Of a DNA stretch of 64,000 nucleotides, positions 54,800 through 57,139 are shown piece after piece (within the stretch, counting starts at the first letter, position 1; every line of letters begins with the position of its first letter). The stretch lies in the sequence record PV340561; one strand, written 5' to 3'. The notes below the pieces were generated by a model, which worked only from the letters and a program-made list of their open reading frames with translations, did no database searches and was not told the DNA's origin. The position numbers and the translations under genes were made by a program. Source of the stretch: Escherichia phage PhiR41_1.

Positions 54800-57139
54800 A
54801 TGGCAAAAGGAAAATCCGCACTGGCACTTGCTCTGAAAAAGAAAATCGGTAGCAACGACGAAATTCAGAAAGTAACTCATTGGATTGACACAGGCTTTCC
54901 TCCGTTAAACAAAGCGATTTCCGGTCGTTACGATGGCGGTTTCCCATGTGGTCGTATCGTCGAAGTATTCGGTCCTCCAAGTGCGGGGAAATGTGTTACC
55001 GCAGACACCATGCTGCTGACGGAGCGTGGAATGGTAACAGTGAAAGAACTGTTTGAGATTGAGGGGCACAAAGCAACATGCACTACTCGCGATGTAGAGC
55101 ATAACGTTGGACTCATCAATGAAAATGGCGTGATAGAGAAAACCTCACACCTGACATGGAACAACCGTCGCAAATTCAAGCGCATTAAGCTGGCATCAGG
55201 GGGTTACATCGAGGCTACGTTCCGTCACCCAATTCGTGTGGTTGACGACTTAGGCAATATCGTCTGGCGGTATGCTGAAAAAATCAGTGTAGGCGACACG
55301 ATTCCTTCAATGGTTGGCACACATCAATTCGGCGATCAGCACTTGGATGCCAATATCGCAAAACTGATGGGCTATTTAATTGCTGACGGATACGTGGCCT
55401 CTGAAAATTCTGTGCATTTTTCTAACACAGATCCATTCATCAAGGATGAGTACTACCGCCTCATTTCGCTGGTATCAGACAAGATGCCAGTTACGAGAAA
55501 ACATAACGGCTCGGAAGACCATGTGCTGTTTAGCAAAGAGGTGCGTTCGCTGCTTTTTAAAGAATATGGTCTGGAGTATGAGAAAGCTGCTGGCAAGCAG
55601 GTTCCGTTGAGTGTGCGTCGCGCCAATAGCGAGGCTCAAATTGCATTCCTTCGCGGCTACTTTGAGCTGGAATGCCACGTCAATGGTGGTCGCTGCATTG
55701 AGGTTGTGAGCGCGAGTGGGCTGCTGCTACAGCAAATTCGCCTCATGCTCCTGAATCTGGGGATTACGTCAACTATCTCTGAAAAACACGTCGCGGGTTA
55801 TGAAAATACATATTACCGGCTGTCATTCAGTGGCTCTAATTACGACCTTTTTCTGTCAACGATTGGTTTCGAATCTCCGGCACGTTTATCAGTGGCAACC
55901 AAACGGGACATTGGTTTTGACCGCACTTACTCAGGCTATGTTCCGCACATCAGCGGCTTAGTGAAATCACTCTACGAGTCGCTCACCAAGACCACCCGTG
56001 AAGACTACGCTCTGGTAGACCACGTTATTGGCCGCGGCGATCGTGTCGGAATAGACAAACTGCGAGAAATCTATGTCTCCTTCATTGGCAGAAAGAATCG
56101 TTTTAACGAGCATCTGTTTGCACAACTGGCAGCGGTAATTGGCTCTAACTTATTCTACGACGAAGTCGTGGCTATTGAGGAAGGTGAAGCACCAACGTTC
56201 GACGTAGCGATGCCGGAAACACACTCTTTCTGGTCTAACGGGATTATCAGCCACAACACATTCCTTGCAACAGCAGCGATGATCTCCGCTCAAAAACAAG
56301 ATGGTCTGGCGGTATTCCTCGATCATGAAAACAGTTTTGACGTTGGCCTGGCTGTAGCCAATGGCCTGAACGCAGATGAGGATGACGGTCAGTGGGTATA
56401 CAAGCAGCCTGATACCTTCGAAGACTCTGTAGAGTTGATCGGCACAATTCTTAAATTGGTACGTGATGAAGAGCTTATTCCTGAATCAGCACCTATCTGT
56501 ATCGTGGCTGACTCACTTGCGTCTATGGTTCCGAACTCCAAAGCCGAGAAGTTCGAAAAGATGGCTGAAGGCACTGCCAAAGACAAAGATCAGCTAAACA
56601 TGAACGACAATACGGCACTGGCTCGTGCGACAAGTGCGAACTTCCCTACTCTGGCTTTGTGGGCACGCAAATACAACGCCTGCATCATCTTCTTGAATCA
56701 GGTTCGCACAAAAATCGGTGTAATGTTTGGCGACCCTACTACGTCGCCAGGTGGAGATTCACCGAAGTTCTACGCTTCTGTACGTATCCGTCTTGGTGCA
56801 TCGGTGATGAAGGATGGTAAAGAGAAGATCGGCCAGGACGTAGGCGCAGAATGCATCAAAAACAAAGTTGCACCACCGTATGGCAAATGCACCTGGAAAT
56901 TCTACTTCGATCCTACTCGTGGCCTCGACGTTATCGAATCGCTCGTCGAGTACATGCTGGAAGAAGGATACCTGCCAAAGAACGCCAGCGGGCGAGTTGA
57001 AATTGGTGACAAGAAATACACCAAATCGCAGATCGTCGAGATGTATCGGGAGAAGCCACTGGCTGAAATCATTGCGGCTTTGCAGGCAATCGACGACCGA
57101 AGAGCAAAAGACAACCCCACCGAGTCAGTAGAAGAGTAA
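54800..57139 (+). CDS. recA: RecA-like recombinase interrupted by an intein (precursor 779 aa; spliced product about 357 aa)
   Basis: Exteins join to give Walker A GPPSAGKT; C-extein contains a RecA-like core (IVADSLASMVP, FLNQVRTKIGVMFGDPTTSPGG). Confidence 0.8.
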   Translation: MAKGKSALALALKKKIGSNDEIQKVTHWIDTGFPPLNKAISGRYDGGFPCGRIVEVFGPPSAGKCVTADTMLLTERGMVTVKELFEIEGHKATCTTRDVEHNVGLINENGVIEKTSHLTWNNRRKFKRIKLASGGYIEATFRHPIRVVDDLGNIVWRYAEKISVGDTIPSMVGTHQFGDQHLDANIAKLMGYLIADGYVASENSVHFSNTDPFIKDEYYRLISLVSDKMPVTRKHNGSEDHVLFSKEVRSLLFKEYGLEYEKAAGKQVPLSVRRANSEAQIAFLRGYFELECHVNGGRCIEVVSASGLLLQQIRLMLLNLGITSTISEKHVAGYENTYYRLSFSGSNYDLFLSTIGFESPARLSVATKRDIGFDRTYSGYVPHISGLVKSLYESLTKTTREDYALVDHVIGRGDRVGIDKLREIYVSFIGRKNRFNEHLFAQLAAVIGSNLFYDEVVAIEEGEAPTFDVAMPETHSFWSNGIISHNTFLATAAMISAQKQDGLAVFLDHENSFDVGLAVANGLNADEDDGQWVYKQPDTFEDSVELIGTILKLVRDEELIPESAPICIVADSLASMVPNSKAEKFEKMAEGTAKDKDQLNMNDNTALARATSANFPTLALWARKYNACIIFLNQVRTKIGVMFGDPTTSPGGDSPKFYASVRIRLGASVMKDGKEKIGQDVGAECIKNKVAPPYGKCTWKFYFDPTRGLDVIESLVEYMLEEGYLPKNASGRVEIGDKKYTKSQIVEMYREKPLAEIIAALQAIDDRRAKDNPTESVEE
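54992..56257 (+). mobile_element. intein with LAGLIDADG homing endonuclease domain, inserted in the P-loop of the RecA-like gene
   Basis: Begins with Cys directly after GPPSAGK, ends with HN followed by Thr; internal LAGLIDADG-like motifs LMGYLIADGYV and FLRGYFELECHV. Confidence 0.8.

Follow-up and report, generated by a model that had tools for sequence, protein, structure and literature searches.

The recombinase gene of Escherichia phage PhiR41_1 (PV340561; the window analysed is a stretch of 64,000 nucleotides) in all likelihood carries, in the P-loop of a phage-plasmid RecA, a class-1 intein that harbours a LAGLIDADG homing endonuclease, an element that would splice, cleave DNA and home. 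A sequence-only reading had described a 779-aa ORF with a 422-codon insert, an N-terminal Cys, C-terminal His-Asn and +1 Thr as intein boundaries, and two LAGLIDADG-like motifs within the insert. All of these are present, and the limits of the ORF and of the insert are confirmed to the base. The features of the locus are as follows.

51949..54797, plus strand: upstream recombination module (context); this and the next four assignments come from the Cyrano annotation by collinearity and from PHROG matches
inside 51949..54797, plus strand: UvsY-like mediator ORF
52498-53526, plus strand: gp32-like SSB
53536-54531, plus strand: 5'-3' exonuclease
54525-54797, plus strand: small ORF
54800..57139, plus strand: precursor ORF, RecA/UvsX-like recombinase with intein, 779 aa, 86.5 kDa (ORF and profile matches)
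54800..54991, plus strand: N-extein, aa 1-64, its last seven residues GPPSAGK (54971-54991); forms one unbroken RecA-profile alignment together with the C-extein
54985..56265, plus strand: junction-proximal synonymous sites (-7, -4, +3, +6, +7), common to all nine intein-bearing alleles (allele alignment)
54992..56257, plus strand: intein, 422 aa, 47.5 kDa, Hint domain split by a double-motif LAGLIDADG endonuclease (PF14890, PF14528, TIGR01445, TIGR01443)
54992..55030, plus strand: intein block A, Cys1 nucleophile at 54992-54994 (TIGR01445 covers intein residues 1-83)
55199..55240, plus strand: intein block B, GGYIEATFRHPIRV, with the TxxH motif (intein Thr76, His79; motif and alignment)
55364..55396, plus strand: LAGLIDADG motif 1, LMGYLIADGYV, predicted catalytic Asp at intein residue 132; aligns to LGYLIADG of the TliVMA intein
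55646..55681, plus strand: LAGLIDADG motif 2, FLRGYFELECHV, Glu227 at the catalytic acid position; aligns to FINAYIVCDGY of 7qss
56192..56257, plus strand: intein blocks F and G, PTFDVAMPETHSFWSNGIISHN, ending in His-Asn (TIGR01443; nearly invariant among aligned relatives)
56258..57139, plus strand: C-extein, aa 487-779 and stop codon, whose first residue, Thr+1, completes Walker A (RecA profile)

The replicon and the host protein

The window is an SSU5/Cyrano-type phage-plasmid of E. coli, and its identity to Escherichia phage Cyrano (pLF82) is 97.6%. Cyrano possesses terminase, capsid, tail, ParA and RepA genes and makes virions (PMC9928086); it is itself a carrier of the same RecA intein, which that paper does not mention. 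This match, together with the phage and ParA/RepA genes, bears out the identification of the replicon as a phage-plasmid.

GPPSAGK occupies residues 58-64 of the precursor and TFLAT begins at Thr487, placing the insertion point between the Lys and the Thr of Walker A. Removal of the insert in silico restores GPPSAGKT and, as had been proposed, leaves a RecA-sized protein, of 357 aa. Phage CMS-2020a has a natural RecA-like protein without an intein, and the two sequences are identical; the C-extein differs from the CMS-2020a allele at 1 of 882 nucleotides. The spliced sequence matches RecA (PF00154) over residues 27-281 with an E-value of 2.2e-42 and 145.8 bits against a cut-off of 27. The match is one contiguous stretch spanning the splice junction, the outcome anticipated for genuine exteins. 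The UvsX-like recombinase family phrog_97 is matched at E 1e-91, a Walker B-like ICIVAD lies in the C-extein at 56495-56524, and the predicted model of the recombinase resembles bacterial RecA structures in Foldseek (E about 1e-16). The cut-off of the bacterial RecA equivalog TIGR02012 is missed by the spliced protein (153.7 bits versus 325.3). By these matches the host protein is a divergent phage-type RecA and not the cellular RecA. Its earlier description as an essential recombination gene was overstated, because about two-thirds of the related plasmids lack the intein and because recA is disrupted by an insertion in one E. albertii plasmid.

The splicing domain

The intein extends from Cys65 (first base 54992) to Asn486 (last base 56257). 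It matches Intein_splicing (PF14890; E 6e-12, 46 bits, cut-off 35.8), the intein N-terminus model TIGR01445 (36.3 bits versus 24.5) and the intein C-terminus model TIGR01443 (16.9 bits versus 15.6), and LAGLIDADG_3 (PF14528; E 8.7e-19, 68 bits, cut-off 22.5) is matched in two stretches, one of which covers intein residues 215-292. Thus, in the comparison with Hint and LAGLIDADG profiles that had been put forward as a check of the insert, every Pfam and NCBIfam cut-off is exceeded, and the matches lie far beyond chance.

The residues of class-1 splicing are all present: Cys65, Thr140-x-x-His143, His485-Asn486 and Thr487 in ORF numbering. The His-Pro of block B is kept in eight of the nine aligned RecA P-loop inteins that cover this block, the ninth, P0006, having His-Arg. 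Among the sampled intein copies, dN/dS of the Hint parts is 0.03-0.05, and the full frame of 779/780 aa is open in 8/9 of the intein-bearing copies.

The endonuclease domain

Both acid positions are filled: in the alignment with the TliVMA intein, the catalytic Asp residues of that intein are matched by Asp132 and Glu227. Glu227 stands opposite an Asp of 7qss, and motif 2 has a Cys at the position usually occupied by Gly. Residue 232 is Gly in the PV340561 copy only (55685-55687) and Asp in all eight other sampled copies, and the endonuclease of the PV340561 copy could therefore be weakened. In the sampled copies dN/dS of the endonuclease region is 0.13-0.15 (about 0.14), a value by which this region is judged to be under purifying selection.

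The full-length structure model is of moderate quality (mean pLDDT 70.8), with a pLDDT of about 80-95 in the endonuclease region. It is poor at residues 59-63 and 470-484, around the splice junctions, and the active-site geometry was therefore not judged from it. In Foldseek searches, the predicted intein fold resembles those of the TliVMA intein (7qss; E 2e-21, target TM 0.70), PI-PfuI (1dq3; E 3e-17) and PI-PkoII (2cw7). These inteins share the combination of a Hint domain and a two-motif LAGLIDADG endonuclease, but they come from archaea, their hosts are a V-ATPase, a ribonucleotide reductase or a DNA polymerase, and their identity to the PV340561 intein is only 14-21%.

Distribution and divergence of the intein

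Intein DNA is present in 248 of the 701 plasmids bearing this recA (Escherichia 123/222, Klebsiella 71/242, Enterobacter 41/91, Yersinia 0/63). Among 5,426 complete E. coli genomes, 120 contain it, in every case on a plasmid. The plasmid databases are weighted to clinical clones, and such prevalence figures are not population frequencies. Two partial matches, L018 and L019, were inspected as candidates for naturally decaying inteins. This was rejected, as both are truncations adjoining insertion-sequence elements, which removed the 5' portions of recA and the intein.

We compared 17 alleles, nine with the intein and eight without, a small sample hand-picked from the search matches. Related replicons that lack the insert, proposed as a further comparison, do exist, and the site is exactly empty in 8/8 of the sampled intein-free alleles; in CMS-2020a the P-loop-coding sequence reads GCAGGGAAA followed directly by ACGTTCCTT. 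Across three recA lineages the intein is 97-100% identical, whereas the exteins of different lineages are only 80-85% identical, with a dS of 0.05 for the intein against 1.2-2.2 for the exteins. In one allele pair, 1266/1266 intein bases are identical, as against 82.2% in the exteins. Every lineage holds both intein-bearing and intein-free alleles, with exteins 98-99% identical. The flank haplotype GCG GGG AAA-intein-ACA TTC CT occurs in all nine intein-bearing alleles and in none of the eight without. From these shared sites, lying within 7 nt of each junction, we infer that a short stretch was co-converted and that it marks the core of a homing site. A search of PLSDB for an intein-free allele with the intein-bearing haplotype, representing a precise loss or the original target, gave none with a 48-nt junction query, which covers only the window's own background because Megablast needs an exact 28-nt word.

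The population signature of homing, comprising patchiness, disagreement between intein and exteins, and co-converted flanks, is thus seen in the 17 sampled alleles. Patchy presence, a near-identical intein, shared flanks and purifying selection together indicate recent, repeated homing between phage-plasmid lineages, and the intein seems to be spreading now among related phage-plasmids of gut bacteria. We regard four things as established by these sequence comparisons: how the element is built, which families its parts belong to, that the empty site is precise, and that the alleles bear a signature of recent inter-lineage transfer.

Proposed mechanism and alternatives

The splicing chemistry, the DNA cleavage and the homing pathway we infer to be as follows. 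The 86.5-kDa precursor would be translated whole. Cys65 would carry out an N-S acyl shift, the thioester would be attacked by Thr487, and Asn486, aided by His485, would cyclise, with release of the 47.5-kDa intein and a 39.0-kDa recombinase containing an intact GPPSAGKT loop. With an intein-bearing and an intein-free phage-plasmid in one cell, the free intein would cut the empty P-loop-coding site, and during repair the intein would be copied into the empty allele together with a small number of neighbouring bases. A similar incongruence would arise if co-resident phage-plasmids exchanged the intein by ordinary homologous recombination and no cleavage took place, but longer flanks would be expected.

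Co-option of the intein as a conditional switch, responding to redox state, temperature or DNA damage in the manner described for the RadA P-loop intein of Pyrococcus horikoshii, would add to this scheme, and we consider it unlikely. The insertion site is that of this RadA, where extein-intein contacts block splicing (PMC5790916), and ATP binding by the precursor would be impossible until it is spliced; however, nothing in the sequence bears on a switch, the intein is missing from some two-thirds of related elements, and it seems to have invaded recently, so that there would have been little time for co-adaptation. Still less probable is that splicing has been kept while the endonuclease is a dead relic, the intein being inherited vertically or as a passenger of ordinary phage-plasmid recombination. 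Decayed endonuclease domains are known in related RecA P-loop inteins (P0011, P0016 and P0017 lack motif 1), and the terminal Cys of motif 2 and the Gly232 unique to PV340561 fit this explanation. It is at odds with an intein nearly identical across recA lineages whose dS exceeds 1, with shared flanks of ~7 nt where general recombination should leave long tracts, and with an endonuclease dN/dS of about 0.14 and the retention of both catalytic acids. That a free-standing-type LAGLIDADG endonuclease gene was fused in frame and inactivates recA without splicing is very improbable: RefSeq calls most copies 'LAGLIDADG family homing endonuclease' and recA, disrupted by insertion in at least one relative, is dispensable there for plasmid maintenance, but the Hint profiles are above cut-off at both insert ends, Cys1, TxxH, His-Asn and Thr+1 are all intact, and the low Hint dN/dS (0.03-0.05) accompanies a wholly open frame in 8/9 sampled copies.

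Annotation and significance

The element is real, ordinary and well understood, of a textbook kind. The exact 779-aa protein is named 'intein-containing recombinase RecA' at NCBI, where the same protein also appears as 'LAGLIDADG family homing endonuclease', 'hint domain-containing protein', 'recombinase RecA' and 'hypothetical protein', and PHROGs places the precursor in a separate family of unknown function. Gene-content surveys of phage-plasmids can therefore miss or split this core recombinase. In the literature on inteins and SSU5/pHCM2/phage-plasmids/UvsX we found no paper on the SSU5-group RecA intein; its allele may be among the 56 RecA inteins of the Novikova survey.

The practical value is mostly one of annotation, and established knowledge of inteins is unchanged. 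The near-identical intein in diverged recA lineages is a record of recent DNA exchange between phage-plasmids of different enterobacterial genera, and SSU5-type phage-plasmids also carry resistance genes. The locus also offers an E. coli-based system for the study of homing and of P-loop intein splicing. It is conceivable, though we hold it only tentatively, that an intein sweep is in progress through the SSU5-type phage-plasmids of Escherichia, Klebsiella, Enterobacter and Citrobacter. Were this so, it would provide a natural, genetically tractable system in which to watch the intein homing cycle in real time. The intein might also serve as a weapon between competing phage-plasmids: if an intein-free rival entered the cell and had its recA cut, linked DNA would be inherited unequally, an effect that homing endonucleases have when T-even phages are crossed.

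Related inteins

Nearly all of the ~150 closest relatives with readable boundaries lie at GK-C...HN-T/S of a P-loop, and RecA-family proteins account for 108/163 of the pooled search proteins, a pool that includes partial copies of the same protein. Related inteins, about 30-48% identical, occupy the same Lys-Thr/Ser position in more than 100 metagenomic RecA proteins. The metagenomic and bacterial RecA inteins represented by P0018, P0019, P0011 and P0016 share the host family, the insertion point and blocks A, B, F and G with the PV340561 intein at 30-48% identity; however, they are all less than 50% identical, several lack the endonuclease and none is the SSU5-group allele. The P0004 RecA intein lies in an SSU5-like gene order.

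The Mycobacterium tuberculosis RecA intein (PI-MtuI; NF007072) is likewise an endonuclease-bearing intein within a RecA, but its site differs: the PV340561 insertion falls at about position 70/71 of NF007072, to which the extein match runs as far as 253, whereas the M. tuberculosis intein presumably begins at residue 252, near the end of that match and about 180 past the PV340561 insertion. The cut-off of NF007072, the mycobacterial-type intein-containing RecA, is missed (about 100 bits versus 1024).

The RadA inteins of P. horikoshii and Thermococcus sibiricus have Cys1 and Thr+1. They lie in the ATPase P-loop of an archaeal RecA homologue (PMC5790916), and so resemble the phage-plasmid intein in P-loop motif and host, but they are mini-inteins without an endonuclease in hyperthermophile chromosomes, whereas that of PV340561 has 422 aa with an endonuclease and resides in an enterobacterial phage-plasmid. 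The 'classic' P-loop K/T inteins (mycobacteriophage TerL1-a, DnaB-b, MCM-a and RFC-S-a; PMC5050341, PMC4760082) occupy the same place in different host proteins, with the invariant Lys of Walker A before them and its nucleophilic Thr after them; among the best NCBIfam matches are precursors of RFC small-subunit P-loop inteins, where the match begins in GPPSAGK. Full-length matches of 31-34% identity were obtained with Herelleviridae helicase inteins (Twort, S25-3, Terranova and others) and with the RecA intein of Bacillus phage fHSPT3. These hosts are also replication or recombination ATPases, but they belong to virulent Firmicutes phages and are mostly helicases.

A metagenomic relative, L020, was considered as a split intein or a case of stop-codon recoding, and both were rejected: a single TGA replaces a conserved Trp codon, and a nonsense mutation is the simplest reading because the neighbouring long ORFs read normally.

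Identification of the intein

Several independent lines of evidence agree that the insert in the recombinase gene is an intein inside RecA. The two features concerned are as follows.

54800–57139, + strand: RecA-like precursor ORF, 779 aa
54992–56257, + strand: intein, 422 codons from Cys65 (start 54992) to Asn486 (end 56257), followed by Thr487

The coordinates, lengths and both LAGLIDADG-like motifs of the sequence-only reading match the sequence exactly. GPPSAGK occupies residues 58–64 of the ORF, and excision of the 422 codons gives a 357-aa protein containing GPPSAGKT. The insert is recognised by the Pfam families LAGLIDADG_3, in two stretches (68 bits, cut-off 22.5), and Intein_splicing (46 bits, cut-off 35.8), and by the NCBIfam models for the N and C termini of inteins, both above their cut-offs. 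RecA (PF00154) matches the unspliced precursor in two pieces and the protein spliced in silico in one contiguous stretch, residues 27–281 (E 2.2e-42), which spans the junction; the proposed intein and its RecA exteins thus withstood profile analysis.

The splicing residues are complete: Cys1, the block B TxxH (Thr140 and His143 of the ORF), the terminal His-Asn and Thr+1. When the intein is aligned to the TliVMA intein, whose structure is solved, its Asp132 and Glu227 fall at the two catalytic acid positions of the endonuclease. An AlphaFold model of the precursor, built from an 11-sequence alignment with a mean pLDDT of 70.8 (80–95 in the endonuclease region), resembles the TliVMA intein 7qss (E 2e-21, target TM 0.70) as well as PI-PfuI and PI-PkoII, and its extein part resembles many bacterial RecA structures (E about 1e-16).

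Empty sites and distribution

Related replicons lacking the insert, the comparison proposed earlier, were found, and in them the site is precisely empty. In phage CMS-2020a the same gene encodes a 357-aa product that matches the spliced window protein at every residue; between the two C-exteins, 1 of 882 DNA bases differs. Exactly empty sites occur also in SSU5, Yersinia pestis pMT1 and plasmids of Klebsiella, Enterobacter and Citrobacter. Subject to the clonal bias of plasmid databases, which applies to the prevalence figures below, PLSDB holds recA on 701 plasmids and intein DNA in 248 of these. Among 5,426 complete E. coli genomes, the intein is present in 120, every time plasmid-borne and never on a chromosome.

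Plasmids with the intein among those with recA, by genus (PLSDB)
Escherichia: 123/222
Klebsiella: 71/242
Enterobacter: 41/91
Citrobacter: 6/20
Salmonella: 1/42
Yersinia: 0/63

Evidence for recent homing

A small, hand-picked sample of nine intein-bearing and eight intein-free alleles falls into three extein lineages (E. coli/Cyrano, Klebsiella and SSU5/pMT1/Enterobacter types), which are 80–85% identical to one another, with dS of 1.2–2.2 and dN/dS of about 0.01. The inteins are 97–100% identical across all three. Between Klebsiella phage p4727 and E. coli pNT1F34, all 1266 of 1266 intein bases are identical and the exteins only 82.2% so; for the window against Klebsiella, intein dS is 0.05. 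Intein-bearing and intein-free alleles coexist in each lineage, with exteins 98–99% identical.

All nine intein-bearing alleles share the flanks GCG GGG AAA-intein-ACA TTC CT, from which the eight intein-free alleles depart, lineage-specifically, at synonymous positions -7, -4, +3, +6 or +7. Past roughly 10–20 nt from the intein, the flanks are again the lineage's own sequence. Such flanks are as expected of co-conversion over a very short tract. Comparing the window copy with the most divergent copy, from E. albertii, gives dN/dS of 0.13–0.15 in the endonuclease region and 0.03–0.05 in the Hint (splicing-domain) parts, so purifying selection has acted on both activities. We infer that each recA lineage was invaded separately, by an endonuclease whose activity continues or ceased only very recently; splicing, cleavage and homing are here predicted from sequence.

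The intein of E. coli D4 plasmid A (locus L010, 2501–3766) is a mosaic, with Cyrano-type substitutions N-terminally and the Klebsiella/Enterobacter-type haplotype C-terminally, which suggests recombination or a conversion tract ending within the intein.

Variant and damaged copies

Just past the second LAGLIDADG motif, the window encodes Gly (GGT, 55685–55687; ORF residue 296, intein residue 232), five residues beyond the catalytic Glu227, at a position that is Asp in 8/8 other sampled inteins. Endonuclease activity of the window copy might therefore differ, and could be weakened.

In E. albertii p3RM15115 (locus L009, about 4110–5240), a plasmid of only 62 kb whose intein is that most divergent copy (93% identical), some 1.26 kb of inserted DNA follows ...KFEKMAE and interrupts the C-extein, carrying a reverse-strand 260-aa ORF with putative IS3/rve-like transposase motifs, judged by eye. 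The description of the gene as essential is unsupported, since most relatives lack the intein and recA is broken in this plasmid. Remnant genes in E. coli pSTK39-3-E-B (L018, 3001–4265) and pCUVM3.1 (L019, 3001–4466) begin at intein nt 884 and 683, respectively, and extend into the C-extein; annotated 'recombinase' and 'hypothetical protein', they adjoin IS3, IS30 and IS110 fragments and look like truncations by insertion sequences.

The recombinase and its replicon

The recombinase is a divergent phage-type RecA: its score of 153.7 falls short of the equivalog cut-off for bacterial RecA, 325.3, and it matches PHROG 97, 'UvsX-like recombinase' (E 1e-91). Its gene belongs to a T4-like recombination module, in which it is preceded, in this order, by genes for a UvsY-like mediator, gp32-like SSB and 5'-3' exonuclease and by a small ORF. 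The region shares 97.6% identity with Escherichia phage Cyrano (pLF82) and 98% with many E. coli plasmids about 110 kb in size. Cyrano, annotated with ParA, RepA and toxin-antitoxin genes alongside those for terminase, capsid, tail and lysis, is described as a virion-producing SSU5-like phage-plasmid (PMC9928086). A stretch at about 36000–45000 has a GC content of 31–41%, against about 45–50% in the rest of the window; collinearity with Cyrano places tRNA genes, integrase and repressor genes and small hypothetical genes there.

Database status

NCBI lists the identical 779-aa sequence, seen on 64 contigs, as 'intein-containing recombinase RecA [Escherichia coli]'; the cluster to which it belongs at 90% identity has 1,496 members. 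RefSeq uses the same name for Enterobacter and Citrobacter copies; the element is therefore already known at the database level, and its class is thoroughly understood. Most remaining copies are called 'LAGLIDADG family homing endonuclease'. Naming is inconsistent between records, with hint domain-containing protein, recombinase RecA and hypothetical protein also in use. PHROG 9666 (779 positions, 'unknown function') is the same precursor. Literature searches found no paper describing this intein. What the present analysis adds is population evidence, drawn from sequence comparison, that points to ongoing homing in enterobacterial phage-plasmids.

Related P-loop inteins

An intein that separates the invariant Lys from the Thr of Walker A occupies what has been called the 'classic' P-loop insertion site (PMC5050341). 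P-loop inteins are known from DnaB, MCM and RFC-S (PMC4760082); the RadA P-loop houses mini-inteins in P. horikoshii and T. sibiricus (PMC5790916). A full scan with HMMER across 1.84 billion representative proteins yielded 4,580 matches, and 163 relatives were pooled from it and an earlier protein search, some being partial copies of the window's own protein. Nearly all with readable boundaries have the insertion at G....GK/C...HN/(T or S), and 108 of the 163 have RecA-family exteins. Loss of the endonuclease, a prediction of the homing-cycle model, is seen in some of the relatives.

The M. tuberculosis RecA intein differs in site. Against the NF007072 profile, the present insertion falls at about position 70/71, about 180 positions ahead of 253, which marks the end of the extein match and the point at which the Mtu intein begins.

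Proteins P0055, P0058, P0061, P0065, P0067, P0074 and others, of about 900–1,140 aa, carry related inteins (about 31–34% identical) in a divergent P-loop, ATN(G/S)GK/C...NHN/TE; RecA-like extein similarity was absent from this group. A 44%-identical intein occupies the same P-loop site in metagenome contig ERZ27257820:k141_7541 (L020, 8001–10388), a distant SSU5-like element with CobT, pol III alpha, gp32, 5'-3' exonuclease, recA and ligase. There, the conserved Trp codon of HSFWSNG has become TGA, which splits the gene call into two ORFs; this is probably a nonsense mutation.
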